Below are positions 3,216 through 38,325 of a DNA stretch of 64,000 nucleotides, in pieces; the first letter of the stretch is position 1, and every line of letters starts with the position of its first letter. The notes below the pieces were generated by a model. The model did no database searches, was not told the DNA's origin, and worked only from the letters and a program-made list of their open reading frames with translations. Source of the DNA: an uncultured Gammaproteobacteria bacterium (GTDB lineage Bacteria; Patescibacteriota; Microgenomatia; Woykebacterales; RBG-16-39-9b); the NCBI GenBank assembly GCA_964360785.1, contig CAYHXX010000001.1, forward strand, positions 138,549-202,548, given 5' to 3'. The translations under genes and the position numbers were made by a program.

Positions 3216-3400
3216 TCGCCTTCTAATTTAGACTATGTGAAAAACTTTGTCAAAGGAGCTTTCGAGTTTCAAACAGGGTGTTTCTGACCTCACTAGCATC
3301 ACTAATTCTGCCAAAATTTGGTAATTAGCTCCTTATACAGTATAATGTGTGATTGAAAGGAGGTACAGGTAGATTTTATTAATAAATCTACATAATAAAT

Positions 3401-3598
3401 ATGAACGGAACAATTAAAACAAAGACAGAAAAAGGATTTGGGTTTATTTCTCGTGAAGGAGAATCAAAAGATCTTTTTTTCCACTCTAATGATTTAGTCG
3501 ATGTTTCTTTTGACGCACTTGAAGTTGGCGCGGCAGTTACATTTGATGTTGTTGATGGTCAAAAAGGTCCAAGTGCAAAGAATGTAAAACTTGCCTAA
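3401..3598 (+). CDS. cspA: Cold-shock protein, CspA family
   Basis: 65 aa, with RNP motifs KGFGFI and FFHSN; upstream extended -10 box and SD AAAGGAGG. Confidence 0.9.
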   Translation: MNGTIKTKTEKGFGFISREGESKDLFFHSNDLVDVSFDALEVGAAVTFDVVDGQKGPSAKNVKLA

Positions 3599-3617
3599 CC
3601 TTAGTTGACAATACATT

Positions 3618-3651
3618 ACAAAAAGGCCTTGCTTCAAGCAAGGTTTTTTTG
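3618..3651. terminator. Bidirectional rho-independent terminator shared by cspA (+) and a small minus-strand ORF
   Basis: Hairpin CCTTGCT-TCA-AGCAAGG preceded by an A-run and followed by TTTTTTT. Confidence 0.7.
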
Positions 3652-3680
3652 TGCTCATTTACTTAAGAATTTTGGAAACT

Positions 3681-3788
3681 CTATTTAGCCTTTTGGTCTA
3701 GAAATGCTTTTTTAATTGCAAGTCTTTTGGCTGTTTTGTGTGAATGGGTTCTTCGACTTTTACCAACACCAGTTGCTCTTTTTGCCAT
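3681..3788 (-). CDS. Small basic protein (35 aa), possibly ribosomal-protein-like. It is below the 60-aa ORF cutoff.
   Basis: Manual translation gives MAKRATGVGKSRRTHSHKTAKRLAIKKAFLDQKAK, a very basic sequence reminiscent of small r-proteins (L28/L32-like pattern GK..R..SH..TAKR). It is convergent with cspA on the shared terminator. There is a TATAAT box just upstream but no clear SD. Confidence 0.3.
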   Translation of the reverse strand: MAKRATGVGKSRRTHSHKTAKRLAIKKAFLDQKAK

Positions 3789-3823
3789 AGACCGCATTAT
3801 ACACTAATCCGTAAATTTTCAAT

Positions 3824-3856
3824 AAAAAAGGCGGCCATTTGTAAAAATGTACCGCC
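3824..3856 (-). terminator. Rho-independent terminator downstream of the NMO-like gene
   Basis: On the minus strand: GGCGG-N17-CCGCC followed by TTTTTT. Confidence 0.6.
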
Positions 3857-3915
3857 TGCCAAAGTTCTCTCTTGATTTCTCTGTCTAAGTAACCACGGTT
3901 TTGCACGTAAGATCC

Positions 3916-5343
3916 TCAAACTAGGATTGAACGAATGACATCTTCCGCAGAATACGAGCCGTCAGGGTTGATCAGCGGAAGGTCTCGGAAGCTCTGGTCC
4001 TTTCCAAGTGTGACGATTTTACCCACGTAAGGTAGCTCTGGACTTATCCCGTCCTTGGCCGTTGCTGACAACGCCTTACAGATACAAACCCTGCCTTCCG
4101 TGTCCTCAACTTTTCCACCTTTCTTGACGAAGACCTTGATCGGCTCCGCCGGACACCGAAACAGCTTACCACCACCCTTCATTTCGTGCGCTTCTACCAT
4201 GTAACCGTGGTCACATGTCCTTTCCATATTATCGAGGACCTTCCGATCGTATAATGTCCCAGGTAACTGCACCACCTGAAAAGGAAATCCTGATGGAGAG
4301 ACAGTCGGATTGGCCATCACAAGTATTGTTCCTGAAATGATCTGCTTTCGTATCTCTGTCTTGATATCGGGAAGCATTCCGGATTCGTTGCAAAGAGCAA
4401 AGGCAGATCCGACCTGCACACCGGTAGCTCCGAGCCTTAGTGCTTCAGCGTACTTTTCCGGAGTTCCATATCCGCCTGCTAGCCAGAACGGTTTTCCCAA
4501 AGCGCGAATCTTGTCCAGATCCGGTTCGTCCCGCTTTCCGTAGACCGGTTCTCCGTTTGCGTCGATCTCCTTCCCTCGCGCCGGCGCGTTGTGTCCTCCT
4601 GCCATCGGTCCCTCGACCACAAAGCCGTCGATTTCTCCCGACGCTCTCGTAGCAAGTGCCTTAGCCAGCGCATCGTGCGAGACGACTGCCAAGAACCTTG
4701 GACGAGTCAGTGGTTTTCGGTACGCTTCCGGAACAAACGTCTTTGGGTCAAATGGCAGTACGTAGTTGTCTCCTCCGGCAACGTCGAGTCTGTAGGAGGT
4801 TTCCTTCCACTCTGCAAGAGAGTCCAACACCCCTGGAACTTGGTTTGGTATCCCAGCGCCCATCAAGACGTAGTCGACACCGGCGAGCATCGCACCGAAA
4901 AACTCGGGTAGATGTGTCAGCTGAATTTTTTCGAGCCAATTGATCCCAATCGGTCTACTGTGACCCTGTTTTGCCAGCCAGACCTCCATGAAGTTAGCAA
5001 CCACGATCATTCGTATCAGAGCGGCCTTTTTCTTCTCAGTACCAGTGACGAGAATCTCCGGTTTGGAAGGTAGCTTGGAGTCAGGATTTAGCCAGTGCTC
5101 CTCAATTATTTCCTGGGCCATCCTGGGAACAGGAAAAGCTTCAAGAGCGGCTCTTGTATCAAGGTCTCCTCTGCGCAACCTGTTAACCATCGTAAGCGCA
5201 AGTCCTATTCCGGAAACCACACCTAGTACCCGCTTATCAAGCTTTTCTCCTGCGACTGCAACTGCGTGTGCCAGTTCCCAGTTCGATATTCCTACTCCCA
5301 TTCCACCCTGAATCAGTTCTGGGTTGGGGTAACCTGTGCTCAC
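3916..5343 (-). CDS. Nitronate monooxygenase (NMO/2-nitropropane dioxygenase) family FMN-dependent oxidoreductase with a Cys-rich C-terminal extension
   Basis: N-terminal QGGMGVGIS and the GATGVQVGSAF motif typical of the NMO family. 475 aa. GC content is clearly higher (~50-55%) than the flanking DNA. Confidence 0.6.
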   Translation of the reverse strand: MSTGYPNPELIQGGMGVGISNWELAHAVAVAGEKLDKRVLGVVSGIGLALTMVNRLRRGDLDTRAALEAFPVPRMAQEIIEEHWLNPDSKLPSKPEILVTGTEKKKAALIRMIVVANFMEVWLAKQGHSRPIGINWLEKIQLTHLPEFFGAMLAGVDYVLMGAGIPNQVPGVLDSLAEWKETSYRLDVAGGDNYVLPFDPKTFVPEAYRKPLTRPRFLAVVSHDALAKALATRASGEIDGFVVEGPMAGGHNAPARGKEIDANGEPVYGKRDEPDLDKIRALGKPFWLAGGYGTPEKYAEALRLGATGVQVGSAFALCNESGMLPDIKTEIRKQIISGTILVMANPTVSPSGFPFQVVQLPGTLYDRKVLDNMERTCDHGYMVEAHEMKGGGKLFRCPAEPIKVFVKKGGKVEDTEGRVCICKALSATAKDGISPELPYVGKIVTLGKDQSFRDLPLINPDGSYSAEDVIRSILV

Positions 5344-5487
5344 CTTAACCTCCTTGAATTCCGTAGTAAATATTCTACACTATTTGAAACAGCAGATATA
5401 AACACGTGGGTAGAAGGGTATTAATTATTTTTGCTTAAAGTACATATTTAGTCCAACTAACGCCACAAATCTGATATATTTAAGTCA

Positions 5488-6231
5488 ATGGAATCAGTTT
5501 GGATTTTCTTAATCGCAGTTTTCGCCACCACAATAAGCTCAATGTCTGGTGGTGGTGCTTCAGTGATAGCACTACCTATCTTCTTAACACTTGGCATTTC
5601 ATTCCCCATGGCCACAGCCATGTTGCAATTAAACTCTAGTTTTTGGGTTCTACCTTCCGCTTACAACTTTGCTAAAGGGAGAAAGATCCAGTGGCCATTT
5701 TTGCTTTTCTTTGCGGCCGTAGGAACGATTGGTTCTTACTTTGGTGTACTGGCTGTGACAAGTGTTGATCAAAAAATATTGGCAAGGGTTGTTGGCTTAG
5801 CCATCATAATTCTCATTCTTTTTATTAACTTCAAAAAAGATATTGGAATAGAAGAGCATGTAGTACGTTCAAAGTTAAAGGAAAGACTGATCTATCTCTT
5901 TTCCCTACCAATGGGTTTCTATGAAGCTTTGTTTGGCTCTGGAAATGGTTTATTTTTCACTGTTATAGCATCCTATTTCAAAGGGTTTGATTTTATTGAT
6001 TCCCTAGCCCACTACTACACTATTTCTTTTCCATGGGCTCTCTTAGCTGCCTTGATCTTAATGTTTAAGGGTTACTTTAATTTAAGCTTAATGTTGCCCG
6101 CGGTCTTGGGAGCATTGGTTGGAGGGTTTGTTGGTTCGAAGTACGCTCGCCTAAAAGGTAACAGGTTTATTAAAATGGCCTTTACTGTTGTAGGGATCAT
6201 TCTTGGCTTAAAACTACTTCTAAATCTATAA
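5488..6231 (+). CDS. TauE/SafE (TSUP) family sulfite/anion exporter-like membrane protein
   Basis: Multi-TM protein; the motif SGGGASVIALPIFL is typical of DUF81/TSUP. Confidence 0.55.
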   Translation: MESVWIFLIAVFATTISSMSGGGASVIALPIFLTLGISFPMATAMLQLNSSFWVLPSAYNFAKGRKIQWPFLLFFAAVGTIGSYFGVLAVTSVDQKILARVVGLAIIILILFINFKKDIGIEEHVVRSKLKERLIYLFSLPMGFYEALFGSGNGLFFTVIASYFKGFDFIDSLAHYYTISFPWALLAALILMFKGYFNLSLMLPAVLGALVGGFVGSKYARLKGNRFIKMAFTVVGIILGLKLLLNL

Positions 6232-6233
6232 TA

Positions 6234-6388
6234 ATTCAAACCCTGTTTGGAGTAGATGGAAAATTGAGGCTAAAAGACATGGAGCACCAGAGCGGACATT
6301 AATAGAACTTTTCAATGTTGTCAAACAAGCCCCCTATCCTTTACTAATTCTTAAAGAAACTAATTTCCTACTACAATTCTCTAAATAG
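6234..6388 (+). repeat. Direct repeat R1 (~155 bp). Imperfect copy of R2 at 7186..7351. It begins with a tRNA-3'-end-like sequence.
   Basis: The segment ccctgtttggagtagatggaaaattgaggctaaaagacatggagcaccagagcggaca... aligns with R2 at roughly 70% identity and shares the end ...ctatag/aaatag. Confidence 0.7.
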
Positions 6389-6431
6389 TTTGCTATATCA
6401 GAGTATAATAATGGCATCGGACGTTTCGTAG

Positions 6432-7055
6432 TTGGCTGAAAAGCCAGAAAGTGAGAGAGCTGTGGGTACCACAGAGAGCTCAATGACCACCAGGCAGATG
6501 GCCCAACTGGTCACGTTGGCCGCAGAGGCGATCGCCTCGGCTGACCTGTCCAAGAGGACCGCCCAGAGAAAAATCGAGGATGCCGCTCAAACCAAGGAGG
6601 GGATCATCGACACTCTGGTTTTCGGAGATGGCCACTGGTCCCGTAGTCAAATGGAGGAAGCCGCCGAACGGTTGATCCGTGACCGCGGGTTCTACTTCCC
6701 CCTCGCGAGTCGTGAAGAACTTGAAAAGCTGGGGAGGTTGCAGCTTCGATACGTGGCCCGTGCAATCAGTCTATGGGGTTCTGTCCACTATTCGTGGCAG
6801 ATCTACCTTCTGAAAAATGGACGCCTTGCCGCGGACGTCACGAACATAACACGGAGTTATGGAGAAGCTTTGGCGGAGGCGGCAGAACTCGTCAAACTGG
6901 AGGTTGAGAGAGGAATGATCCATTACACCTCCGTGGTGTACGAGATGAAGACAGATGAGTTTGGCGAGCCGCTGGTAGAGGTTGGGTACCGAGTCAATTC
7001 ACACCCCTCCCCCTTTATGTGCTTCGTCATCCGCCGGATGCAACACAGAAATTAG
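6432..7055 (+). CDS. Hypothetical protein, GC-rich foreign-looking gene flanked by R1 and R2
   Basis: 207-aa ORF with no recognisable motif; GC ~55% against a ~38% background. Confidence 0.4.
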   Translation: MAEKPESERAVGTTESSMTTRQMAQLVTLAAEAIASADLSKRTAQRKIEDAAQTKEGIIDTLVFGDGHWSRSQMEEAAERLIRDRGFYFPLASREELEKLGRLQLRYVARAISLWGSVHYSWQIYLLKNGRLAADVTNITRSYGEALAEAAELVKLEVERGMIHYTSVVYEMKTDEFGEPLVEVGYRVNSHPSPFMCFVIRRMQHRN

Positions 7056-7106
7056 TTTGGGATTAAGGAGACCAGAGATCGGCAGTCGCTTCCTGCGACC
7101 GCCTTT

Positions 7107-7175
7107 CCCCAAGCAAACCAAGAGATTGGTTTTCTTAGGACAAGTAACTAGCTGAAAGGCTAGTTTTTTGTTGGT
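7107..7175 (+). terminator. Terminator-like double-hairpin repeat module, copy 1
   Basis: AACCAAGAGATTGGTT hairpin, then TTAGGACAA, then AACTAGCTGAAAGGCTAGTT hairpin plus TTTTTTG. The same module occurs at 8621..8668 and inverted at 37264..37333. Confidence 0.65.
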
Positions 7176-7185
7176 TAAATTAGTT

Positions 7186-7351
7186 TCAAAGTTCGAATCC
7201 CTGTCTGGAGAAAGTGGAAATTTGTGGCTAAAGCCTATGGAGCTCCAGAGCGGACACTACTAGAACTCTTAAGTGCTGTAAAGCAAATACAATACCCAAA
7301 CTTAGTTTTAAATGAAAGTACTTATCTTCTGAACCTAATCTCAGTCCTATA
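7186..7351 (+). repeat. Direct repeat R2. It starts with GTTCGAATCCCTGTC, identical to the T-arm/acceptor region of tRNA-Gln(CTG).
   Basis: The 15-mer gttcgaatccctgtc at 7191-7205 equals the sense sequence of the tRNA-Gln(CTG) 3' region at 10571-10585 (minus strand). The rest aligns with R1. Confidence 0.7.
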
Positions 7352-7426
7352 GTATTGACTTGCTGACCTATTTCTGCTATGATTTAAGTATCAATCTGGC
7401 CAAAATAGCCTAGAAGGAGCGAGACC

Positions 7427-8164
7427 GTGCAGAGCCGAACCATCGTGGTCAACGGCACACGAATTCGGTGCCTTTTAGGAGGTAGTGAGTTCAACCCAGT
7501 AGTTGTCCTTTTGCACGGATGGGCGATGGCCTCGTCCGTCTACAAGCACTTAGGAGATCTACTGTCGGAAGGGCACTTTGTCATCATTCCTGACCTACCT
7601 GGTTTTGGAAGAAGTGACAAAGTATCGCCAGTACAGTTCGAGAAGTTTGCAGCGATTCTCGATGACCTGCTAGAACAATTGGGTCTTTCAAAAGTCTCTC
7701 TGGTCGCTCACTCAATGGGCGGTGCAGTAGCGATTAAGATGGCTCAGAAGTTCCCCAAGCGGGTCGAGAAGGTTATTCTGGTAGATAGTATGGGTGAGAT
7801 GGTTAACCGAGGCTTAATCGGTTGGGCAATTGCCGCCATCTACAAAACACTCCGCAGTCTATCAGTAGATCACCTTCGAGCTGTTACTAGGGTTGTTACC
7901 ATCTGTGCCTTGAACTGTTTGAAACGTCCCTTGTGGATGTGGCAGACGTTCAGGCTAACGATTGGAACAGACCTGGTAGCGGTACTCAAAACTGTCAAAA
8001 CCGAGACACACTTGGTATGGGCAGATAAAGATGAGTACTTCCCTTCCTGTCAGAGAATGGCTTCGGCAATCAACACCCAGCCGATTATCATTCCAAAAGC
8101 AGGACACGATTGGATAATTCTAGAGCCAGTTGCCGCAGCACAGATAATTAAGCAACTACTCTAG
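7427..8164 (+). CDS. Alpha/beta hydrolase fold protein
   Basis: HGW oxyanion motif and nucleophile elbow AHSMGG; GC-rich relative to the host background. Confidence 0.6.
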   Translation: MQSRTIVVNGTRIRCLLGGSEFNPVVVLLHGWAMASSVYKHLGDLLSEGHFVIIPDLPGFGRSDKVSPVQFEKFAAILDDLLEQLGLSKVSLVAHSMGGAVAIKMAQKFPKRVEKVILVDSMGEMVNRGLIGWAIAAIYKTLRSLSVDHLRAVTRVVTICALNCLKRPLWMWQTFRLTIGTDLVAVLKTVKTETHLVWADKDEYFPSCQRMASAINTQPIIIPKAGHDWIILEPVAAAQIIKQLL

Positions 8165-8279
8165 CGTCTTCTATCTTATGGACTAGAAAACCATAAGGGA
8201 GTTCTTACGAAAAGAACTAAGTTTCCCAATCAAAAACCTCTAATGTCCAGCTGACCGTAAGGTCGAGGAGGAAACTGTA

Positions 8280-8504
8280 ATGACCGAAGCACTTATTCTT
8301 GCGGCTCTAAGCATCTCACCAGCTGGACCCGTGATCGGTACAGCGGAGTTCGTTAGCGGAATAGCCTGGATCATATTGTGGTTCTCAGCCGTCACTCTGG
8401 TAACTTCTGGTCGGGGTGATAAAGGGTGGATATCCTTCCAATCTGGGTGGGTAGCGATGCTAGTCTTTTTGGTCCTTGCGATCGTTCAGGTTGCCCAAAG
8501 TTAG
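8280..8504 (+). CDS. Small membrane protein, hypothetical
   Basis: 74 aa with two predicted TM helices; GC-rich. Confidence 0.3.
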   Translation: MTEALILAALSISPAGPVIGTAEFVSGIAWIILWFSAVTLVTSGRGDKGWISFQSGWVAMLVFLVLAIVQVAQS

Positions 8505-8620
8505 CCGAACCTAAAATCGAAGAATGAAGCAAGTTGAGTAGGGGTAATTCTGTGGCCACTCCTTAAGATCAAAGCAATTTGATCAAGGCCATTTCCCCGA
8601 ATTAATCTAAGTTAGGTTAA

Positions 8621-8668
8621 TTTAGGACAACAAACTAGCTGAAAGGCTAGTTTTTTGTTGGTTAAAAT
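8621..8668 (+). terminator. Terminator-like hairpin repeat module, copy 2
   Basis: ttaggacaacaaACTAGCTGAAAGGCTAGTTTTTTGTTGGTTAAA, nearly identical to 7131-7180. Confidence 0.6.
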
Positions 8669-8691
8669 TGATTATTTTGAAGCTAAAACCG

Positions 8692-8766
8692 TGGAGCGCG
8701 AGAAGGGGTTCGAACCCTCGACCTCTTCCTTGGCAAGGAAGCGTTCTACCGCTGAACTACTCGCGC
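8692..8766 (-). tRNA. tRNA-Gly(GCC)
   Basis: GCGCGAGTAGTTCAGCGGTAGAACGCTTCCTTGCCAAGGAAGAGGTCGAGGGTTCGAACCCCTTCTCGCGCTCCA. Cloverleaf with anticodon loop TTGCCAA; CCA is encoded. Confidence 0.85.
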
Positions 8767-8829
8767 TAGCGAGATCTATTAAATTGAGCTGAACATTAGC
8801 TCCGATCAGATCGGAGCGCAGAGCGCGAA

Positions 8830-8852
8830 GCGATCAACTCGCGCGTAAGTGG
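8830..8852 (-). pseudogene. Partial copy of the tRNA-Gly(GCC) 5' end
   Basis: Minus-strand CGCGCGAGTTGATCGC against the tRNA 5' GCGCGAGTAGTTCAGCG. It lies next to the palindrome GCTCCGATCAGATCGGAGC (8806-8824). Confidence 0.45.
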
Positions 8853-10559: not shown

Positions 10560-10633
10560 TGGCTGCGGGACAGGGATTCGAACCCCGATAAGCAGATCCA
10601 GATTCTGCTGTCCTACCGTTAGACGATCCCGCA
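10560..10633 (-). tRNA. tRNA-Gln(CTG)
   Basis: TGCGGGATCGTCTAACGGTAGGACAGCAGAATCTGGATCTGCTTATCGGGGTTCGAATCCCTGTCCCGCAGCCA. U1-A72 and G73 are typical of Gln; anticodon loop ATCTGGA. Confidence 0.8.
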
Positions 10634-10639
10634 ACAAAA

Positions 10640-10700
10640 AATAACTGTCCTGTCCGCCAGCTGGCGGATTGGATGCTAAAAGCATCTGCCCGCTAGACGA
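10640..10700. repeat. Palindrome CCGCCAGCTGGCGG plus a partial tRNA-Gln(CTG) 5' fragment
   Basis: The sequence gtccgccagctggcggattgg (10651-10672) shares a 20-mer with 37094-37117. tagacgatcccgg (10686-10698) duplicates the tRNA 5' region tagacgatcccgc. Confidence 0.6.
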
Positions 10701-10799
10701 TCCCGGAATGTTCTGGCATTTTAGCAAATCTGGCTTGGATTCTCAATTACAAACAAAAAGACCGCCTTGCAGCGGTCTTTTTTTGAATTCGTTTTTAGT

Positions 10800-11264
10800 T
10801 TATCTTGTTGCTTCAATACCTAATCCTTCACCTCCCGCAACCGCAACTTTGATTCGATTACCTGGAAGTCTGGTGATCCGATACTTTGTGTCGTAGGCCG
10901 CTGCACAAGAGCTGAAACTTCCGCCAGTATCAAATGGGAGAGAAGCTATGTAGGTTGGCACAATATCGCTACAAATAACCGCCTCTACATTGCCAACGCT
11001 ATCGTCTGTTTTTATATCAGCAACTTGACTCTCAGGTATTGTACCTAAGTTTCCCGGTAGGTTTCCTTCTTTAACGTAAAACTGATTAACGGCGTTGAGA
11101 ATTTGCAAAACGTCATTTTTTCGCTTTACATTACGGGCGTCCTTGGAATTTTCTGTTGGGTTGATTGCTACTAAGACAATGGTAGCGAGAATGGTCAATA
11201 AGGCAATGACGACGATTACTTCGATTAATGTAAACCCTGATTGAGTTTTAATTTTGGACAGCAT
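10800..11264 (-). CDS. Type IV pilin (major pilin candidate)
   Basis: Class III signal ...KTQSG/FTLIEVIVVIALLTILATIV; C-terminal Cys pair (disulfide loop). Confidence 0.8.
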   Translation of the reverse strand: MLSKIKTQSGFTLIEVIVVIALLTILATIVLVAINPTENSKDARNVKRKNDVLQILNAVNQFYVKEGNLPGNLGTIPESQVADIKTDDSVGNVEAVICSDIVPTYIASLPFDTGGSFSSCAAAYDTKYRITRLPGNRIKVAVAGGEGLGIEATR

Positions 11265-11266
11265 AA

Positions 11267-12718
11267 TTACTTTCTCCCGACTATAATAATAATATCGAAT
11301 TGATCATTTTCTTTTAAAAGATCGCCTCTAATTACAGAATATCGCTCTGAAAGAGTACTTGTCAAGTCTGTTAGTATCGCCTCTTTACTTGCCTTATACT
11401 GAAGCACCGTTTGTTCGTAATTGGTTGTTGGGGCGTTACCGACAGCAGGTACATTGTAACCTCTGGAAACGAGAAAAACTTTGGTTTGGTTGGCAAGTCC
11501 TTTAGTACCAGTACCGTTGAGAACCTCAATCGTGTAGTCTTGTTTATTTATAATCGGGACAGGTGGTTGAGACTTTGGTTCTTCCACAGGTTCTTCTACG
11601 ATTTTAGCCGAAGGTGTACTTGCAGGTTTTTCCGCTTTTTGATCTACAGGGGTCTTTATCTCATTATCTTGCTTTTTTGAAAATAAATTTTCGCGAATAA
11701 AGCCAACTGCGAATATAAGTAAGATTATTCCTAAAAGTACAGCCACAACTTTTACAAAGGAATGAAGATTAAGCGGCTCTCTATTTTTTTTGTGGGCCTC
11801 TACAATACTTCCTGTAAATTTCTTACCCGTGAAATTCAATTCGTTATAAGTGCCAATACTTAAAAATAAGTTTTTATAATAGTTGATTAAATCACTGGTT
11901 TCTTCAGCCTTAAACCGAGGCAACAAGTCAACTACCTCAACGTTAAGTTTTTCTTCAGCAAGATAAATTTTTACTATTTGCGCTTCACTACCGACAACAA
12001 AAACATTGTGTAAAGAAATTTGTTCTTTGTTGTGGTTGGTAAACGCCACTTTAACCAAATTCTTAAAAGTTTTTACAATTAATTCCTTGGAACTTTCAAG
12101 CGTCGTGGTCAACTTAAGGGAAGCTGAAAAAACAATGGTTTGATTGATTACTTGTGCAAATTGCAAACTCTGGTCCTCGATTAAAACAAAGAGATAGGAT
12201 TCAGCTTCTTTAGCAAGCATATTTAGACAAGCTAATGGAATTGGTGACATACTCACAAGTTCAAAACCACTATTTTCGAAAATTGAGACAAAATCTCGAA
12301 GCAGTAAAAATTTGGTGCTGACAATCTGCGTGCTGTTTTTAACTCTTTGTAGGTACTTTACACATGCCTCCTGTAAAGAAAAGGGTAGGTTTATGGTTAG
12401 AAACTTAGAAATTGTTTCCTGTTTCCCTACGATACTATCGGAAAGATCAAGTTTGTGAAAAAAAACTTCTTGTTCGTTGATTCCAAAAATAATTTTTCTA
12501 GTTTTCAGGTTAGATTTATTTCTAAGCAAGAAACCGCGTACTTCTTCCTTAAAACGAACGAGATCAGCGATTTTTTCGTCAAAGACTACCCCCTCGGGGA
12601 GAGTTTTTTGATCTGTAAAAATAACTTTCGGTTTTTTAAAAGCCAGATCAATTACGACTGCTTTGAGGGCAAGATCTGAAAACGTTAAAAAGATAAACTT
12701 TTTGCTTGAAAGCAACAT
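11267..12718 (-). CDS. PilM-like (actin-like) pilus assembly protein fused to a TM segment and a C-terminal LytR_C-like domain
   Basis: N-terminal ~300 aa PilM/FtsA-like; TM helix LLGIILLIFAVGF; C-terminal IEVLNGTGTKGLA...VGNA...DIIIIVG matches the LytR_C pattern. Confidence 0.5.
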   Translation of the reverse strand: MLLSSKKFIFLTFSDLALKAVVIDLAFKKPKVIFTDQKTLPEGVVFDEKIADLVRFKEEVRGFLLRNKSNLKTRKIIFGINEQEVFFHKLDLSDSIVGKQETISKFLTINLPFSLQEACVKYLQRVKNSTQIVSTKFLLLRDFVSIFENSGFELVSMSPIPLACLNMLAKEAESYLFVLIEDQSLQFAQVINQTIVFSASLKLTTTLESSKELIVKTFKNLVKVAFTNHNKEQISLHNVFVVGSEAQIVKIYLAEEKLNVEVVDLLPRFKAEETSDLINYYKNLFLSIGTYNELNFTGKKFTGSIVEAHKKNREPLNLHSFVKVVAVLLGIILLIFAVGFIRENLFSKKQDNEIKTPVDQKAEKPASTPSAKIVEEPVEEPKSQPPVPIINKQDYTIEVLNGTGTKGLANQTKVFLVSRGYNVPAVGNAPTTNYEQTVLQYKASKEAILTDLTSTLSERYSVIRGDLLKENDQFDIIIIVGRK

Positions 12719-12738
12719 AAATTAAATTGTACCATCCT

Positions 12739-13128
12739 TCACGGGAGCTCTTTCCAACAACAATAAGTGACTTTTGAATTTGCAATTGTGGCTTGAACCT
12801 GTATCTTTTTAACAATAGTATCGTTTGTACTTGTAATCGATACCGTACAGAGTGACCCAACTAGATTGTAGGAAACTTTTACTGTCGAGGTATCGATTGT
12901 TAAAGTGTCTTCGGGATTTCCACAGCTATTTGGTGCACGAACCAGTCTTAGTAAAGCGTATTCTGCGCCGGATTCTGCTCCGTAATAAGCTGACTGGGAG
13001 GTTTCAGTCAAAAAGTTGTTCTTTGCTAAAGTAACCGCCGTAAGAGTGACTCCTGTGAGAATCGTGATCGACAGAGCGATTGCGAAAATTAAAATAATTA
13101 AAGCTTGTCCGGACTCATTCTTTCTCAT
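12739..13128 (-). CDS. PilX-like minor pilin
   Basis: Hydrophobic N-terminus GQALIILIFAIALSI followed by SQSAYYGAESGAEYAL, the PilX N-terminal signature. Confidence 0.5.
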   Translation of the reverse strand: MRKNESGQALIILIFAIALSITILTGVTLTAVTLAKNNFLTETSQSAYYGAESGAEYALLRLVRAPNSCGNPEDTLTIDTSTVKVSYNLVGSLCTVSITSTNDTIVKKIQVQATIANSKVTYCCWKELP

Positions 13129-13640
13129 CTTGTCGTCACCACAATTTCGTAATTTTTGGTTTGGTTTCCTTGTTGGGTGGCTTTTACGTCAGTCAAAGCA
13201 AAATTAATCTTAACTGACAATTTCCCGCCGACAGATCCTAAAGCTTGAAAAGAAAGATTACTAACATTGGTCAGGTCTGTATTCAGATTGGCTGAAGTTG
13301 TCGTTACCCCAACTGTTTTTTGATAAAGTAAGTTACTTCCCGATAGACTAAAGGTATGAGTTTCTGAACCACTTGTCAGAGTCAGGCTAGTTGTAGCTGG
13401 GCCAGCGAGTACAGGAGTTGTAATCGTATCTGAGTTGCGAATCTCGTAATTTAATCGAGAGGTTATAAATCCAGCGTCAATAAGCAAACCCGACTGACTC
13501 TCCGACTCTGTTTTTAAAGATCCGCTAGTAATCAAAAGATCAACCACGACAAAAATAATTATCGAAAAAAGTGCAATGTAAAGAATTACTTCTATTAGAC
13601 TTGTTCCTCTCTGTGAGTGCTTTTTAATAAATTTATTCAT
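13125..13640 (-). CDS. Prepilin-type minor pilin / pseudopilin
   Basis: QRG/TSLIEVILYIALFSIIIFVVV prepilin cleavage and methylation motif. Confidence 0.55.
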   Translation of the reverse strand: MNKFIKKHSQRGTSLIEVILYIALFSIIIFVVVDLLITSGSLKTESESQSGLLIDAGFITSRLNYEIRNSDTITTPVLAGPATTSLTLTSGSETHTFSLSGSNLLYQKTVGVTTTSANLNTDLTNVSNLSFQALGSVGGKLSVKINFALTDVKATQQGNQTKNYEIVVTTR

Positions 13641-15586
13641 GGCGAATAGTTAATATTGACATCGCTTAAAGTTGGAGTTAACTGACCATCACTAGTAAAA
13701 AAGGCTTTGTAGCGCAAGTACCTTCCACTTATCCTGTTTAAAGGGATTGGCCCTGGAGCCGTAAAAAAAGACCCTAAAATACCATCCGCTCCGAAATAAT
13801 CCCATGGCCCACTGGAATTATTGCTTGTAGCAACCTGAAGTGCGAGAGTAGTATTTGCGGTTTTAAGTTCTGTCCAGGTAATATTATTGAAAGCAGCATT
13901 GTCAACTCCGGTATCAAAACTTGTTAATAATGAGTGGGATGTAAAGTCGCCGGAAGTAGAATAAGTAGAGCTAGCTTGAGTTGTAAAATAAAAGCCTGCG
14001 ATATCCATATTGGAGTTTGTATCTGTCCAAGTTGAGCCCGAATTACCACTTGCGGTATAAACAGAATTTATTCCGTCATAAGTAATGGAGTCGTACTCTG
14101 GTAACTTTGTACCAGTAATTCTATAAATATGATAATAGTTTGTAAGGTTGGAAAGCGGTGATTTCAAGAAAATCCTATAAGTGTGCCCATCCGTCAACAC
14201 TTGCGACGTCAAAAAAGTATATTTTTTATAAGTAAAAGTCGTATCGACTGTATTACGTGTAGCTAAAGTAACCCCTTCAACCATTTTTATTATGTTGTTG
14301 GTAGTAACATCCCACAGATCCAGGTATAAATCATCCAACGGTACTGTATTACTGTTCCTGGCAACAAAAAAAGAAATTTCAGTGACAATTTTGTCACCCC
14401 CGCTAACAGTAAATTTCTCGCCGATCCTAGAACTACTTGAAATTCTCGAAAGTGTGAAATTAATAAATGGATTACCCTCATAGGTTGAATCAGAATAATC
14501 CAGTTCGTAAATAGGCTGTTGATTCAGAACTAACCAAGGAGCGGCGGCACCGGCTTTGAATAAAGTATTGGAATTGAGATCAATCGCCTGTGTTTTTGGT
14601 ATTAAATAATTAAGTGGGGTTGTACTGCCAACATTAATATATCTATTCGAAGCCGGTGTTCCGAAGGGCTCAACAACCAAATGATAAACTGTTCCAACCG
14701 TAACATTAACTGGAGTCCCTAAAGGTACTGTATTCCAACCAATAGAGTTAGTGGGAAAGATTCTGGCTCCCAAAAATACACCTGAAGGTAATCCAGCCGA
14801 ATCAGATTGCAAACTGTAGCGGTATGATCTACTATTTTGTGACTCTCTTAAATAAACCCGGACTGCAATAACGGGTTTTGTTGCTTGGGCAGTAAACTTT
14901 ATTGAGGTTTTGTGACCGAGTGTTGTCATTCGCCCAACCGACGATTGCGCTAGAACCTGAAACTTGTTGCCATAATCAACACCTGCAGTGGGATTTGATG
15001 AAAGTTCAACTGCACCTGCAACACCGCTTCCCCCGGAAGTAACAACCGTATTTGTCCTTGCACCTGAGTTAAAGTCTGCTTGGTTAGTTTGTGTCCAAAC
15101 AGTGTTATTGAAATTTCTGGTCAAATATAGGCTCGAACTGATCGACTGGTTTCCAAGAAAAGACCAACTGACCGTGGCAGTAATTTTTTTAGTCGCAGGA
15201 TCAGTGATCGAACCAGGAAAAGAACAATCGACAGGTAACGATGTTGCCTGCAAGCGACAAACATTGGCAACAGTAAATCCGTGGGTAAGATTGTTTTCAA
15301 ATATCGTACCGGGTTTAACTTCCCAAATGTTTAAGTTTTGCTCGACGTGATAAGTTCCGGTTGTAGAAAAGCTACTCCAGCTAGTTTCTTTAATTGAACG
15401 CAGAGCCTCGACCTCCTTTTGAAGCAATAATTTAGCCTTCGTACTAGTACTTGTACGGTTAAGAGCTTCTCGGACTGAAATAATTCCCAGTACAAAAGTA
15501 GTCAAGAAGAAACTCGCGATTGAGATTGCTAGAATTAACTCGATTAGGGCTTGTCCATGGTTATCAGCAACCACCGTTTTGCGCAT
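13637..15586 (-). CDS. Large (649 aa) prepilin-like protein, candidate pilus tip or adhesin subunit
   Basis: N-terminal GQALIELILAISIASFFL pilin-like helix, followed by a long Ser/Thr/Asn-rich beta-rich region. Confidence 0.5.
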   Translation of the reverse strand: MRKTVVADNHGQALIELILAISIASFFLTTFVLGIISVREALNRTSTSTKAKLLLQKEVEALRSIKETSWSSFSTTGTYHVEQNLNIWEVKPGTIFENNLTHGFTVANVCRLQATSLPVDCSFPGSITDPATKKITATVSWSFLGNQSISSSLYLTRNFNNTVWTQTNQADFNSGARTNTVVTSGGSGVAGAVELSSNPTAGVDYGNKFQVLAQSSVGRMTTLGHKTSIKFTAQATKPVIAVRVYLRESQNSRSYRYSLQSDSAGLPSGVFLGARIFPTNSIGWNTVPLGTPVNVTVGTVYHLVVEPFGTPASNRYINVGSTTPLNYLIPKTQAIDLNSNTLFKAGAAAPWLVLNQQPIYELDYSDSTYEGNPFINFTLSRISSSSRIGEKFTVSGGDKIVTEISFFVARNSNTVPLDDLYLDLWDVTTNNIIKMVEGVTLATRNTVDTTFTYKKYTFLTSQVLTDGHTYRIFLKSPLSNLTNYYHIYRITGTKLPEYDSITYDGINSVYTASGNSGSTWTDTNSNMDIAGFYFTTQASSTYSTSGDFTSHSLLTSFDTGVDNAAFNNITWTELKTANTTLALQVATSNNSSGPWDYFGADGILGSFFTAPGPIPLNRISGRYLRYKAFFTSDGQLTPTLSDVNINYSP

Positions 15587-16085
15587 TTATAACTCCAAGA
15601 AAATTAGTAGTAAGTAGAATTCGATTATTTAGGGTATCTGCTAGACAAAGGTTATTTTTTGTTTGATCGAAATTTTGCACCTCTCCGGCAAGCTTTGAAA
15701 AAACAATATTGTTACAGTCGTTGGGACTAGAAGGACAAGGTAAATTCGGGTTAATTGAAAGTCCAGTGGGGACAGCCACTGAAAAATTGTTTGTATCGGC
15801 TGGATTGAAAACCGTTCCTCTAAAGATAGTGTAACTATTTACACTAAAATGAACTCCAAACTCGCTAGCGGTTGGTTGTCCGAAAGTTTCTGAGTGCATG
15901 GCTTTGGTTTGAGCGTCTTTTAGGTTGGCTGTTATGTCCTTTGCCAAACTATTCACTTCTTCTCGAGCCAAGGGATTGAAAAGGTTAGGTGTCAATAAAG
16001 ACAAGATTACAACGAAAAATGATACTACCAAAAGAATTTCGATCAGAGAAAAACCATTTTCTGAATGGGCAGTAAGTTTTTCCAT
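15564..16085 (-). CDS. Type IV pilin-like protein
   Basis: A likely true start MEKLTAHSENG/FSLIEILLVVSFFVV sits at 16085. The longer ORF start at 16154 would overlap pilC. Confidence 0.55.
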   Translation of the reverse strand: MEKLTAHSENGFSLIEILLVVSFFVVILSLLTPNLFNPLAREEVNSLAKDITANLKDAQTKAMHSETFGQPTASEFGVHFSVNSYTIFRGTVFNPADTNNFSVAVPTGLSINPNLPCPSSPNDCNNIVFSKLAGEVQNFDQTKNNLCLADTLNNRILLTTNFLGVINAQNGGC

Positions 16086-16086
16086 A

Positions 16087-17169
16087 CTACTGACGATTGA
16101 TTGAACCGATACCTTGATAGATAGGCAAAACAACGGAGACAAGCACCAGTGCAACCATAACTGCGATAAATATAATCAGTACGGGTTCAATAATTACAGT
16201 TAAATTTTTTATTATCTCGGTGAATTTGTGCTCATAAAATTCCGCAATGTCGGTTAAGGATTTATCTAGTTTTCCACTCTCCTCCCCAACACCAATAACA
16301 CGCCGCAGTAACGACGGGAAGCTTTTTGAAGATGTTTTCATACCTTTTGCTAATGACGACCCTTCAGTTAGCTGGATAATAACTCTTTCAAGCTCGCCAC
16401 GTAATTTTTCTGAAGCTACAACATTTTTCGAGATTTCTAAAGCATTGATAATCGGAACACCGGCACTCAAAAGCAACCCGGTGGTCTGGGCGAAACTCGA
16501 AAAATCCCTCAGCCGAATAAGATTGGAGATCCCAGGTAGGCTAAATAGAAAATTCAAAAAAACTTTTTTAATTCTACGGATTTTGAGAAGAAGGTATAAC
16601 AAAAAGACGAAAACGGCTATAACTACAATAAATGTTTCCTTATTGTCACCAAACCAAAGAGCCATTTTTAGGATTGTGGAGGAGTAAACTGGCAGATTTA
16701 ATCGCAAATCAAAAAAGACCTGAGCAACCTTTGGTAATGAATACCCAAAGACCAAAAAAGCGACCAAAAACAAAACAGTGATAATTATTGCGGGATAAAA
16801 AAGGGCTGATTTGATATCCCCTTTAGTTTCAATATTTTTCTTCAGGTTTTTCGCAGCACTTTGTAAGACAGAATCCAGCTTTCCACTAGCCTCACCAGAT
16901 TTGACAATACTTAGGAAAACCGGGTCGAAACTCTCAGGAAAACGTCCAAAGCTTTCAGAAAGTGACTTTCCGTTATTTATCTCCTCAGTGATTGTTTTGA
17001 CTACCTTTTTGGTTTTTATGCTGCTGGTATCTTCGTCAATTGAGCTCAGAGCTTCAGTTATCGGAATACCTGAGGCAAGCATAGTCGCAAGACTTTCGAG
17101 TACGAACAAATTCTCAGCATCTGTGAGTTTAATATTTTTTGCTTTAGAAAAAAAAGTTGGCAGTTTCAT
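16087..17169 (-). CDS. pilC: Type IV pilus inner-membrane platform protein PilC (GspF family)
   Basis: 360 aa, duplicated T2SS_F-like domains, three TM segments. Confidence 0.85.
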   Translation of the reverse strand: MKLPTFFSKAKNIKLTDAENLFVLESLATMLASGIPITEALSSIDEDTSSIKTKKVVKTITEEINNGKSLSESFGRFPESFDPVFLSIVKSGEASGKLDSVLQSAAKNLKKNIETKGDIKSALFYPAIIITVLFLVAFLVFGYSLPKVAQVFFDLRLNLPVYSSTILKMALWFGDNKETFIVVIAVFVFLLYLLLKIRRIKKVFLNFLFSLPGISNLIRLRDFSSFAQTTGLLLSAGVPIINALEISKNVVASEKLRGELERVIIQLTEGSSLAKGMKTSSKSFPSLLRRVIGVGEESGKLDKSLTDIAEFYEHKFTEIIKNLTVIIEPVLIIFIAVMVALVLVSVVLPIYQGIGSINRQ

Positions 17170-17172
17170 ACT

Positions 17173-37093: not shown

Positions 37094-37150
37094 TCGGTCC
37101 GCCAGCTGGCGGATTGAGTGCGGAGCACTTGCGTCCCTCCAGGCGCGCCA
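37094..37150 (+). repeat. Palindrome CCGCCAGCTGGCGG plus a partial 3' copy of tRNA-Arg (att-like scar)
   Basis: The sequence tcggtccgccagctggcggattgag is followed by gtccctccaggcgcgcca (against the tRNA 3' end atccctctgggcgcgcca, 14 of 16). Confidence 0.6.
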
Positions 37151-37233: not shown

Positions 37234-37263
37234 TATATTTTTAGCCTCAGATTTATCCATTTT

Positions 37264-37333
37264 AACTAACAAAAAACTAGCCTTCCAGCTAGTTAATTGT
37301 CCTAAGAAAACCAATCTTATTGATTTGCTTGGG
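37264..37333 (-). terminator. Terminator-like double-hairpin repeat module, copy 3 (inverted)
   Basis: On the minus strand: CCCAAGCAAATCAATAAGATTGGTTTTCTTAGGACAATTAACTAGCTGGAAGGCTAGTTTTTTGTTAGTTAA, matching 7107-7175. Confidence 0.6.
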
Positions 37334-37422
37334 TTGAGACCGAAGCAAAGGAGTTGAACCCATGCTTCGGCCCTGCTGACGGCGATCTGTTGGAGACAGC
37401 CTTGCGACTCAAACCACCGCTA

Positions 37423-38325
37423 TTATGCAGCTTGCAGGTGACCCTCTTCCGTTTCGAAGCTGATGAACGGGCAGATCTTCCGCTTCTTCGCGACCGCGAA
37501 GTGCGCTGCGACCTTTACCGTTCCCGCCACACCTTTGGCAAACTTCGAGCCTGGAAAGGCGGCGCCAGGGTGGGCTTTGTCCCACTTGTCGAACCTGGCG
37601 CTTCCGAGAAGTGCGGAGGGCACCAGGAACAGAGCAGCGCCGGTGAGAATCAGGAACGCCACCAGGTGGGTATAGGCGAACCACCCAAGGAATGCGAGGA
37701 TCGCTGCTACCATCAATGTAAGGATAGTCCCAGGAACCGCCGCATCATGCTCCCAGCTCCAACGCCTCACGGCCCGACAGATACCGTAGAGCCCGTTCCC
37801 GACAGGTGTCCAGGCTCGCCAAATCATGCGGGTGGTGAACCTAATACCTCGCCAGGTTGGCCGAGCAGCAGCACATATCCCCGCCCAGAGGAACTTGCCC
37901 GCTGGTCTGAGATAAGGGCCAGTCTTTTCCCAGAGGTACTTGCCGATGACCTCCGTCCTCTTTTGGCGTAACACCCAGACGAACCCAAGATCGGCGGCGA
38001 ATGCTGCGGCAACTAGCAGGGCGACAAGGAGTCCCAAGAGGGTCTTGTCTGGCCAGATCATGTAGCTCACGACCGTGATGGCCAAGACGTCCAACTCGAA
38101 GAACACGAGCCAAGGTCTCACCCACCCCCTTAGGGTTGAGGCGTGGATGAACCAACGCCGCGGTGCCCAGAGAAGTAGAACCCGCATGTAGTGGCAAAGG
38201 TTCTCCTGGTAGTGCCAACCGTTGTAGCCCCCCTTGTCCTCCCAGTACTGGTACCAGCGGTAGTGCCAGGAGGACGTGCTGATCTTCAGCTCCCCGCTGA
38301 AAAAGTCAGAAAGAAACTGTGGCAT
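37423..38325 (-). CDS. Trp/Arg-rich multi-TM membrane protein, hypothetical. Very GC-rich foreign-looking gene.
   Basis: 300 aa with at least five hydrophobic helices; GC ~60%. The overlapping plus-strand ORFs are Pro/Arg-rich antisense artefacts. Confidence 0.4.
   Translation of the reverse strand: MPQFLSDFFSGELKISTSSWHYRWYQYWEDKGGYNGWHYQENLCHYMRVLLLWAPRRWFIHASTLRGWVRPWLVFFELDVLAITVVSYMIWPDKTLLGLLVALLVAAAFAADLGFVWVLRQKRTEVIGKYLWEKTGPYLRPAGKFLWAGICAAARPTWRGIRFTTRMIWRAWTPVGNGLYGICRAVRRWSWEHDAAVPGTILTLMVAAILAFLGWFAYTHLVAFLILTGAALFLVPSALLGSARFDKWDKAHPGAAFPGSKFAKGVAGTVKVAAHFAVAKKRKICPFISFETEEGHLQAA

Follow-up and report, generated by a model that had tools for sequence, protein, structure and literature searches.

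The window is the whole stretch of DNA that was analysed, 64 kb in length, and comes from an ultra-small groundwater bacterium of the Patescibacteria. Its variable stretch runs from about position 3216 to 8691 and ends at the tRNA-Gly(GCC) gene. The part nearest the tRNA, 6232–8690, holds three cargo genes (A, B and C), two copies of a junction module (R1 and R2) and two copies of a terminator module (D2a and D2b). A type IV pilus operon (10800–18858) directly adjoins the array. The features are as follows; designations such as L004 and L034 refer to related loci.

3216–5487, strand not applicable: older part of the variable stretch, missing between the LysM-like gene and TauE/tRNA-Gly in L004
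3401–3598, plus strand: CSD gene, in the older part of the stretch; a core-bounded cassette in L022 and L034
3681–3797, minus strand: ORF for a small basic protein, in the older part of the stretch
3916–5343, minus strand: GC-rich NMO-like gene, in the older part of the stretch (GC3 z 3.7)
5488–6231, plus strand: TauE-family exporter gene, left neighbour of the island (Pfam TauE, 1e-33)
6232–6279, plus strand: spacer copy 1, a putatively displaced tRNA-Gly 3′ flank with T-loop-like ATTCAAACC, aligning with the TauE/tRNA-Gly spacer of L004
6280–6296, plus strand: att-like core copy 1, TGGAGCACCAGAGCGGA, a 12/17 match to the reverse complement of the tRNA-Gly 3′ end
6299–6388, plus strand: R arm copy 1 (nhmmer, 50 bits), with 26-codon micro-ORF core LIELFNVVKQAPYPLLILKETNFLLQ, stop codon TAG at 6386–6388 and no in-frame start codon (frame analysis)
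6432–7055, plus strand: cargo gene A, 207 aa, 55% GC, orphan
7081–7186, plus strand: terminator module D2a, with a GC hairpin (7081–7103), a hairpin at about 7117–7134, and a terminator hairpin (7146–7165) followed by a T run
7187–7237, plus strand: spacer copy 2, containing GTTCGAATCCCTGTC at 7191–7205
7238–7254, plus strand: att-like core copy 2, TGGAGCTCCAGAGCGGA
7257–7352, plus strand: R arm copy 2 (nhmmer, 57 bits), with micro-ORF core LLELLSAVKQIQYPNLVLNESTYLLN, stop codon at 7350–7352 and a possible GTG start at 7224
7355–7383, plus strand: cassette promoter TTGACT-17-TATGAT with extended −10 TG, shared with the B cassette of L034
7427–8164, plus strand: cargo gene B, alpha/beta hydrolase, 245 aa (Pfam Abhydrolase_1, 3e-29)
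8280–8504, plus strand: cargo gene C, 74-aa membrane-like ORF, missing from the B cassette of L034
8610–8691, plus strand: terminator module D2b (hairpin 8632–8653) and spacer ATTTTGAAGCTAAAACCG, abutting the tRNA
8692–8766, minus strand: tRNA-Gly(GCC), the anchor, intact (ARAGORN and Rfam, 71 bits)
37234–38470, minus strand: further occurrence of the terminator module that is not part of the finding, in the order tRNA-His, spacer and module copy D2c, a 300-aa ORF (59% GC), a promoter and a tRNA-3′-end-like fragment

The cargo is foreign in composition. Genes A, B and C have GC contents of 55.1, 48.6 and 51.1%, against 40.7 ± 3.0% in 54 background genes, and GC3 values of 64, 51 and 51%, against 37.1 ± 4.2% (z 6.5, 3.4 and 3.2). 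An earlier note, made from the letters of this DNA, had described a GC-rich block that is not uniform with its surroundings. The cargo genes are indeed outliers, but the background lies at 40.7% and the window at 41.7%, not at the 38% given there. The foreign insertion beside a tRNA that the note proposed is borne out both by these GC3 values and by an empty site in L004, described below.

Gene A matched only itself among 5.8e9 and 1.84e9 proteins, apart from one weak N-terminal match. It belongs to no family in Pfam, NCBIfam, PHROG or PADLOC, has no NCBI record, and falls in a cluster whose members are nameless. Homologues of gene B (52–83% identity) are found on other metagenomic contigs in a different gene context, and some of these contigs are Patescibacteria-like. 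PHROG matched B to an esterase family and the cargo beside tRNA-His to a ‘membrane protein, moron’ family, and nothing else. The 65 ORFs of the window include no recognised recombinase (29 were scanned with Pfam, the others judged from sequence or precomputed annotation), in agreement with the earlier note.

The same arrangement was assembled independently five times, from three Hainich replicate metagenomes and two Logan runs, and the block is therefore not an assembly artefact. All Hainich contigs that contain the exact TauE or 159-aa protein show it, with the same junction. Neither a circular form nor an empty-site polymorphism was seen among the contigs examined from the Hainich population.

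Anatomy of the junction and terminator modules

R1 and R2 are genuine direct repeats, as had been claimed: positions 6238–6372 and 7196–7330 align over 135 nt ungapped at 70% identity in a repeat search, and 91 nt align at 78% in blastn (E 2e-16). Three parts make up each repeat: a copy of the spacer that lies 3′ of tRNA-Gly, 17 nt that mimic the 3′ end of this tRNA, and a conserved arm of about 80 nt. R2 additionally has a strong promoter; the promoter associated with R1 is weaker and lies upstream of it. The complete unit is ordered as core, arm, usually a promoter, cargo gene or genes, hairpin terminator and short spacer, with a −35/−10 pair immediately 3′ of the R arm in most cassettes.

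The attachment core corresponds to the last 17–18 nt of tRNA-Gly(GCC). In R1 and R2 it reads TGGAGC[A/T]CCAGAGCGGA (6280–6296 and 7238–7254) and mimics the 3′ end of the adjacent tRNA; across units the pattern is TGGAGC-NNN-AGA-NNGG, modelled on the last 17 nt, and the final spacer of a unit resembles the tRNA's own 3′ flank. The first 47 nt or so of R1 and R2, which include the piece GTTCGAATCC, align to the tRNA-Gly 3′ spacer of L004, after which TGGAGC keeps register with the end of the tRNA. Core copies at 6280, 7238 and 8692 are direct repeats of the tRNA 3′ part that flank the inserts, with 12/17 identity to the tRNA-Gly 3′ end; such repeats around an insert beside an intact tRNA (71 bits) are the classical mark of integration into a tRNA gene. 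The TCC at positions 7–9 of the R-type core is unlike all tRNA-Gly ends seen, and this mismatch suggests that the identity between recombining partners may be restricted to TGGAGC plus the spacer.

Full-length R copies align best to tRNA-Gly(GCC) among 12 tRNAs (z 1.6–2.9). R is unlikely to be a folded tRNA-like or other known RNA: ARAGORN detected no tRNA, Rfam (the tRNA model included) gave nothing at E up to 10, and the 5′ part folds no better than shuffled sequences.

The arm contains a micro-ORF whose frame is open in all 15 intact R copies, with no stop in 15 × 26 codons. Entropy by codon position is 0.63/0.25/1.10 in these copies, and pN/pS is 0.28, against 0.78 and 1.99 in the other two frames. 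This substitution pattern has the signature of a protein-coding sequence and points to purifying selection. In some R copies an ATG or GTG stands at the core and is preceded, 9 nt upstream, by GAGG; an in-frame start codon is missing in 5 of 16, R1 included. Neither Pfam nor a PDB profile search gave a match, and the AlphaFold model has a pLDDT of 57. We propose that the micro-ORF may function in recombination or its control. A profile search of 5.8 billion proteins returned just three ORFs of 53–84 aa, so that no parent gene of the arm is known, and on this result we set aside the idea that R represents a large gene's displaced C-terminus, comparable to phage 21/icd or SSV-type split integrases.

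The hairpin module reported to follow the cargo genes is likewise repeated. D2a (7123–7186) and D2b (8610–8673) are 84% identical, rising to 95.6% in the 45-nt hairpin core; both score as intrinsic terminators and fold far better than shuffled sequences (z −5.5 and −4.3). A third copy, D2c (37247–37333), adjoins tRNA-His and is 92% identical to D2a. The tRNA-His island has the terminator and spacer, and its distal end differs from that of the tRNA-Gly array.

Related arrays and the empty site

In L004, the TauE stop codon is followed by a 49-nt spacer and tRNA-Gly with nothing else between, so that the block proposed as an insertion is absent there. TauE itself lies between an R copy and tRNA-Gly in L004, and is thus older cassette cargo. 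In seven genomes the 3′ flanks of tRNA-Gly diverge directly after GCTCCA/CCA, and L034 has a 166-bp insert between perfect 18-bp repeats of the tRNA 3′ end.

A search for further copies of R gave a divided answer. Within the 64-kb window, blastn found none beyond R1 and R2; in related Patescibacteria contigs there are at least 15 distinct copies, which separate different cargo genes in tRNA-Gly arrays. Where the contig is long enough to show the flanks, these arrays lie between FemAB and LysM/MurT genes, beside tRNA-Gly(GCC). Their cargo comprises TauE, CSD, a DUF4258 and MqsA-like pair, NUDIX, sigma-70, a 280-aa ORF and GC-rich orphans, and cassette content varies between genomes. The layout is accordingly that of a cassette array, as the earlier note had suggested, with core-bounded tandem units in the window and in its relatives. 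Four of the 12 metagenome matches to the core pattern (L016, L018, L025 and L027) lack the R arm and lie on contigs of about 46% GC, and were discarded as chance matches.

The cassettes behave as units. The L014 and L023 versions of the DUF4258/MqsA cassette share about 88–90% identity from core to core, and the similarity ends past both cores. The R copies of these two loci carry the core of an L004-type tRNA-Gly, unlike L023's own tRNA, the comparison with the host tRNA being made on L023 (L014's own tRNA-Gly is outside its contig). L034 has the B cassette as well, where CSD and a PP2C gene are its neighbours. Some cassettes, such as CSD, have the core and no R arm.

The cassettes hold cargo only, with no integrase gene at an element end. 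Neither a recombinase nor an integrase was seen in the related loci, L004, L015 and L034 included, and the arrays examined contain no integrase remnant. A phage or plasmid vector was considered and rejected: IMG/VR contains none of the patterns for R core, R arm and D2, the island has no blastn match to plasmids or phages, and PADLOC gave zero matches.

Growth of the array and comparison with known systems

We consider it probable that integrase-less cassettes were added successively by recombination at the tRNA 3′ end. A circular cassette with a single site (terminator, spacer, core, arm) would recombine with the tRNA 3′ end and insert between the tRNA and the previous cassette, leaving the tRNA intact and displacing the old 3′ flank outward, beside the new core. 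R1 and R2 would be the resulting junctions, each made up of displaced spacer, core, arm and promoter. The arrival order in the window would be TauE first, A next and B/C last, and positions 6232–8690 would then be the two units added most recently to an array of gene cassettes that has the 3′ end of tRNA-Gly(GCC) as its anchor. Since the cassettes carry no recombinase, the enzyme would have to act in trans and be encoded elsewhere in the genome.

It speaks against the model that RecA-dependent homologous recombination would be possible just as well with arms so long and conserved. So do the want of a recognised recombinase in the window (29 of 65 ORFs scanned with Pfam) and in the related loci, the want of circular forms and of empty-site polymorphism among the Hainich contigs, the deviating R-type core, cassettes such as CSD that have no R arm, the different distal end of the tRNA-His island, and the missing start codon in 5 of 16 R copies. 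The array could have been built and reshuffled by homologous recombination after natural transformation, with the R arm and the terminator, spacer and tRNA modules as portable homology and no dedicated recombinase. The conserved flanks are 80–190 nt long and 70–90% alike, the 64 kb contain no recognised recombinase, and the type IV pilus operon at 10800–18858 is directly beside the array; moreover, the B cassettes of the window and L034 differ in the 5′ half of R next to a promoter and gene that are 80–96% identical, which suggests breakpoints inside R. Homologous recombination sits poorly, however, with junctions placed precisely at TGGAGC, both in the tRNA and in all R copies, with the perfect 18-bp target duplication around the 166-bp insert of L034, with cassette identity that ends abruptly at the cores, and with a terminator/spacer module that also abuts tRNA-His, where long homology is absent. 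We judge it unlikely.

It is far less probable that R1 and R2 are decaying attL/attR scars of classical elements that carried an integrase, targeted tRNA-Gln or another tRNA, and later lost most of their sequence, integrase included, by deletion. In favour of this reading, partial tRNAs are a well-documented relic of tandem integration (10.1101/2020.12.28.424599), the only T-loop-like motifs away from tRNA genes are those at 7191 and 38454, each at the far end of GC-rich cargo, and a fragment at 38441–38470 ends in ...TAGCCA where the tRNA-Gln genes of the window end in ...AGCCA. The 15-nt identity between 7191–7205 and tRNA-Gln(CTG) at 10569–10583, on which the earlier note relied, is real; it is weak evidence, with an E of 0.03 within the window and with the near-universal T-loop making up most of its length. 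The origin drawn from it does not stand: the core mimics tRNA-Gly, the best of the 12 tRNAs in full-length alignment, and the T-loop piece belongs to the tRNA-Gly spacer, being already present in the empty site of L004, which largely refutes the tRNA-Gln reading. Nor are the repeats merely decayed, since the module is conserved across genomes, its coding pattern indicates purifying selection unlike neutral decay, R2 has a strong promoter, and none of the arrays examined shows an integrase remnant. We give just as little credence to an immobile arrangement, in which R and D2 are a regulatory or leader module that is specific to the lineage, is made up of promoter region, small ORF and terminator, and was copied locally before unrelated genes. 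The promoter at the end of R2, the terminator nature of D2, the selection on the micro-ORF and the confinement of R to this locus within the window are all consistent with it; against it, whole cassettes are present or absent at the same site among relatives, the neighbours of one and the same cassette change from genome to genome, the cargo is foreign in composition, and a tRNA-end repeat lies at every boundary.

Successive recombination at the tRNA 3′ end can be extended, more tentatively, to a possible integron-like chromosomal gene-capture platform in this Patescibacteria lineage, on tRNA-Gly(GCC) and perhaps other tRNAs. Integrase-less, expression-ready mini-cassettes (pseudo-tRNA core, micro-ORF, promoter, cargo, terminator) might be inserted, excised and exchanged between genomes by a trans-acting recombinase, and the micro-ORF, antisense through the pseudo-tRNA core, might be a new small protein needed for recombination or its control.

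Patescibacteria (CPR) genomes are tiny and have yielded few descriptions of classical mobile elements; to our knowledge, the route by which they acquire accessory genes is largely undescribed. The literature covered by our search gave no description of such arrays in Patescibacteria, and the Gracilibacteria ‘hypervariation’ paper deals with a repeat protein and is unrelated. If the proposal is correct, a tRNA-anchored cassette platform would be a concrete and searchable route of gene gain in this huge group, would explain GC-rich orphan genes within AT-rich frames, and would extend the logic of integrons and tRNA islands to much smaller, integrase-less units. The junction module provides a ready sequence tag for finding such arrays, and the conserved micro-ORF overlapping the tRNA-end mimic is a candidate new small protein. 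Even if plain homologous recombination maintains the array, it is a clear hot spot of gene exchange in these organisms.

The tycheposon islands of Prochlorococcus are anchored on tRNAs and built by tandem integration, with partial tRNA copies between units (10.1101/2020.12.28.424599). As in the array, their variable region begins at a tRNA 3′ end; tandem units within the tRNA-proximal island are split by partial copies of the tRNA end, with newer units pushing older ones outward; and the cargo is accessory and compositionally odd, with rearrangements and inversions confined to the island. The array differs in that neither the window nor any array examined contains the tycheposon-type tyrosine recombinase or the replication/packaging module, and none of the units was seen to have an integrase or replication module within or beside it. 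Its units are just 0.7–1.5 kb, share an arm of about 80 nt with a coding signature, mostly carry their own promoter and terminator, and reside in Patescibacteria.

Integrons, too, line up small cassettes in tandem and in one orientation, each holding one or two genes and no recombinase gene; they have a conserved structured boundary module, the newest cassette beside the primary site, and cargo rich in orphans, toxin–antitoxin pairs and small hydrolases. In the array, by contrast, intI was not found (64-kb window, L004, L015 and L034), attI and Pc are absent, the primary site is a tRNA gene, and the boundaries lie at the tRNA-end mimic TGGAGC rather than at attC RYYYAAC/GTTRRRY. The GTTGGTT/GTTAGTT of the hairpin module does not fit GTTRRRY, and the module is terminator-like, with a T run. 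Integron cassettes are mostly promoterless, whereas those of the array usually have their own promoter and terminator.

In CIME/ICE accretion, cis-mobilizable att-flanked elements are moved by the integrase of a related element, and IMEX use the host XerCD. These too are integrase-less, att-bounded units, tandem at one site and served by a recombinase in trans, as those of the array would be. For the array, neither a helper element nor a dif-like 28-bp site was identified, the units are far smaller, and the target is a tRNA 3′ end. The array is best read as a variant of tRNA-anchored island building not seen before.

Structure and composition of the array

The earlier note proposed that foreign genes form a cassette-like array beside a tRNA gene, and this reading was correct. 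The array has the following features:

6238-6372 and 7196-7330: R1 and R2, direct repeats of 135 nt, ungapped, 70% identity
6432-7055 (+): gene A, orphan
7123-7186: D2a, hairpin terminator module
7355-7383: strong promoter after the R2 arm, TTGACT-17-TATGAT
7427-8164 (+): gene B, alpha/beta hydrolase (Pfam)
8280-8504 (+): gene C, 74-aa membrane-like ORF
8610-8673: D2b, hairpin terminator module
8692-8766 (-): tRNA-Gly(GCC), the anchor

A repeat search confirmed the direct repeat, which blastn aligned at 78% across 91 nt (E 2e-16); neither blastn nor a profile search found a third copy within the 64-kb window. The hairpin module is also repeated, as had been claimed: D2a and D2b are 84% alike, rising to 95.6% in the 45-nt hairpin core, with intrinsic terminators called at 7146-7165 and 8632-8653, a T run after each, and folding z-scores against shuffles of -5.5 and -4.3 respectively. 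The GC content of the cargo is raised (A 55%, B 49%, C 51%, against 40.7 +/- 3.0% in 54 background genes), with GC3 z-scores of 6.5, 3.4 and 3.2; the 38% background quoted earlier was slightly low, the whole window being 41.7%. Three Hainich groundwater replicates and two Logan runs yielded the same arrangement in independent assemblies, which rules out an assembly artefact.

Searched against 5.8e9 proteins and 1.84e9 cluster representatives, gene A matches only itself and one 247-aa protein, P0129, its sole distant relative, with which it has the first 50 residues in common. On its contig (L037), P0129 is flanked by a different direct repeat of ~45 nt at 1-45 and 919-965 (GTCGTCATCTGTCATAT...), a possible sign of a separate family of cassette junctions. 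The gene B family is small and occurs in various contexts in other metagenomic contigs, some Patescibacteria-like, with a GC content of about 48-51% whatever that of the host contig (41-47%). No family was found for gene C in Pfam or NCBIfam, and searches with IMG/VR patterns, blastn against plasmids and phages, PHROG and PADLOC revealed no phage, plasmid or defence signature.

A scan of the GTDB species representatives, with the neighbouring FemAB protein as query, identified two closer relatives (76% and 72% amino-acid identity), one labelled Saccharimonadales. In L004, a contig from a relative, only a 49-nt spacer separates the TauE stop codon from tRNA-Gly(GCC), which is encoded on the opposite strand. 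It follows that the 2.46-kb block of the window was inserted between these two genes. Another such contig, L005, lacks TauE and has different genes after tRNA-Gly. In seven genomes the 3' flanks of tRNA-Gly part ways directly past GCTCCA: on these sequences, the variable region starts exactly at the 3' end of tRNA-Gly.

The terminator and spacer module recurs in a second island at 37234-38470, which consists of tRNA-His (+), D2c (37247-37333, 92% to D2a), a 300-aa membrane ORF (-), TTGATA-17-TATAAT and a tRNA-3'-end-like fragment, GGTTCGAATCCTACCCGGGTAGCCA; its distal end differs from the R module. The membrane ORF has 59% GC and 72% GC3 (z 8.3), and matches phrog_944 ('membrane protein, moron', 4e-12). 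The sequence GTCCGCCAGCTGGCGGATTG occurs beside tRNA-Gln(CTG) (10653-10706), where a partial copy at 10680-10706 resembles the tRNA-Gln 5' end, and between tRNA-Arg and tRNA-His (37099-37118). Hairpin-like sequences similar to one another (GGTTCGC...TTTCGC...GCGAAA) lie 3' of tRNA-Gln(ctg), Gln(ttg), Lys, Val and Leu(taa). Raised-GC ORFs are found at 36319-36861 (-), between tRNA-Gly(TCC) and tRNA-Arg (180 aa, 48% GC; no Pfam, PHROG or PADLOC family), and at 50721-50969 (-) (82 aa, 53% GC). A type IV pilus operon (pilins, PilB-like ATPase, T2SSF; 10800-18858) directly adjoins the cassette array.

The R module and its micro-ORF

Alignment with the L004 spacer and the tRNA divided R1 and R2 into three parts: a first ~47 nt that copies the spacer after tRNA-Gly in L004; a core, TGGAGC[A/T]CCAGAGCGGA, in register with the reverse complement of the tRNA-Gly 3' end and matching the window's own tRNA-Gly at 12/17 positions, with TGGAGC invariant; and an arm of ~90 nt without counterpart in the tRNA flank. 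The R-type core includes the palindrome TCTGGAGCTCCAGA. Because the same spacer also separates D2b from the real tRNA-Gly, terminator - spacer - core - arm - promoter constitutes the array's repeat unit. The repeats had previously been traced to tRNA-Gln(CTG). The 15-nt identity (7191-7205) exists, but it is mostly T-loop, has a within-window E of 0.03 and falls inside the spacer copy; with the core in register with tRNA-Gly, the tRNA-Gln origin is incorrect, as is the description of the repeats as 'decayed scars'.

Full-length R versions in relatives contain an additional 34-nt segment and align end-to-end better to tRNA-Gly(GCC) than to 11 other tRNAs (z 1.6-2.9), suggesting a distant tRNA-Gly ancestry; both ARAGORN and the Rfam tRNA model fail to identify these versions as tRNA. 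A 45-aa ORF at 8655-8792 (+) runs antisense through the real tRNA-Gly, and its ...RSTAELLALA resembles ...RFSDLIELLEAV of the full-length R micro-ORF, a likeness consistent with derivation of R from a tRNA-Gly copy. Just 5' of tRNA-Gly, 8794-8845 resembles R's 34-nt unit plus the 5' half of tRNA-Gly.

Unexpectedly, the arm core (78 nt, 15 copies) has a coding signature, with entropies of 0.63/0.25/1.10 at codon positions 1/2/3. In the coding frame pN/pS is 0.28, against 0.78 and 1.99 in the other two (R1 vs R2 alone, 0.43), and there are no stops in 15 x 26 codons, against 49 and 34. The coding frame translates as L[IF]ELLEAVKKIPYPTLVLKESxYLLN. In full-length copies, the last spacer base and the TGG of the core form an ATG or GTG, with GAGG nine bases upstream, giving a 47-50-aa ORF antisense through the tRNA-like core. 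Where the 34-nt segment is missing, as in R1 and R2, this start does not lie in frame; an in-frame start is wholly absent in 5/16 copies, R1 included. No family or structure match was found in Pfam, NCBIfam, PHROG, PADLOC or PDB, and the AlphaFold model has low confidence (pLDDT 57). The arm probably encodes, or formerly encoded, a small protein, of which the window's two copies may be relics.

Core-bounded cassettes in relatives

The R-peptide profile, run against 5.8 billion proteins, found only three short ORFs (53-84 aa). Further copies were gathered from their contigs and from a metagenome scan with the core pattern, giving at least 15 distinct copies (nhmmer). In all sufficiently long contigs they sit in an array that lies between the FemAB gene and LysM-like/MurT genes and has tRNA-Gly(GCC) as one of its ends. 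Genomes differ in cargo: TauE, cold-shock protein, a DUF4258+MqsA-like pair, NUDIX hydrolase, sigma-70 factor, a 280-aa ORF and GC-rich orphans. Relative to the FemAB and LysM-like flanks, contigs L004, L017 and L021 have the TauE/tRNA-Gly unit in the opposite orientation to the window, L015 and L026. In the window, 3216-5487 (LysM-like gene to TauE) is part of the same variable region and contains CSD, an ORF for a small basic protein and an NMO-like gene (52% GC). In contigs L022 and L034, CSD forms a core-bounded cassette, and in the window a degenerate core-like GGAGCTTTCGAG...ACAGGGTG lies near 3255.

The DUF4258/MqsA cassette is about 88-90% identical between contigs L014 and L023 from one TGGAGC to the next; beyond both cores similarity is gone and the neighbours differ. 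The R copies of both contigs have the core of the L004-type tRNA-Gly (TGGAGCGGGAGACGGG), unlike L023's own tRNA (L014's own tRNA-Gly is off its contig). This pattern indicates exchange between genomes, with crossover at or next to the core. The window's hydrolase cassette is found again in L034, with 80-96% identity in promoter, 5' UTR, gene B and 3' UTR but without gene C, flanked by a CSD cassette and a PP2C gene and again beside tRNA-Gly. At 3775-3958, L034 also has a 166-bp insert between perfect 18-bp direct repeats, TGGAGCGCGAGAAGGGAT, equal to the tRNA-Gly 3' end; by sequence, this is a textbook target duplication. The ends of the insert are inverted-repeat-like, and it may be a cargo-less mini element.

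Mechanism and comparison with known systems

The anatomy of the array fits serial Campbell-type insertion, in which a circular cassette bearing a single terminator - spacer - core - arm site would recombine with the tRNA 3' end, the newest unit ending up adjacent to the tRNA. Such insertion would produce the order seen here, namely old spacer - core - arm - promoter - cargo - terminator - spacer - tRNA. In tycheposons, tandem integration of a similar type has been documented (10.1101/2020.12.28.424599). No recombinase was recognised among the window's 65 ORFs (29 by Pfam, the rest from sequence/annotation), and any recombinase involved must therefore act in trans. The main rival is DNA uptake followed by homologous recombination via the conserved arms, which we consider less likely, since the junctions are exact, an 18-bp duplication is present in L034 and identity drops off abruptly at the cores.

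In the literature searched, we found no account of arrays of this type from Patescibacteria. The array is similar to integron arrays in unit size and cargo, and its cassettes are mostly promoter-bearing; with no intI recognised in the window and no attC-type sites at the boundaries, it is set apart from integrons. Similarly, with no integrase or replication module seen in the window or the other arrays examined, it differs from integrase-bearing islands and tycheposons. It works like the tRNA-anchored islands that are built by accretion.
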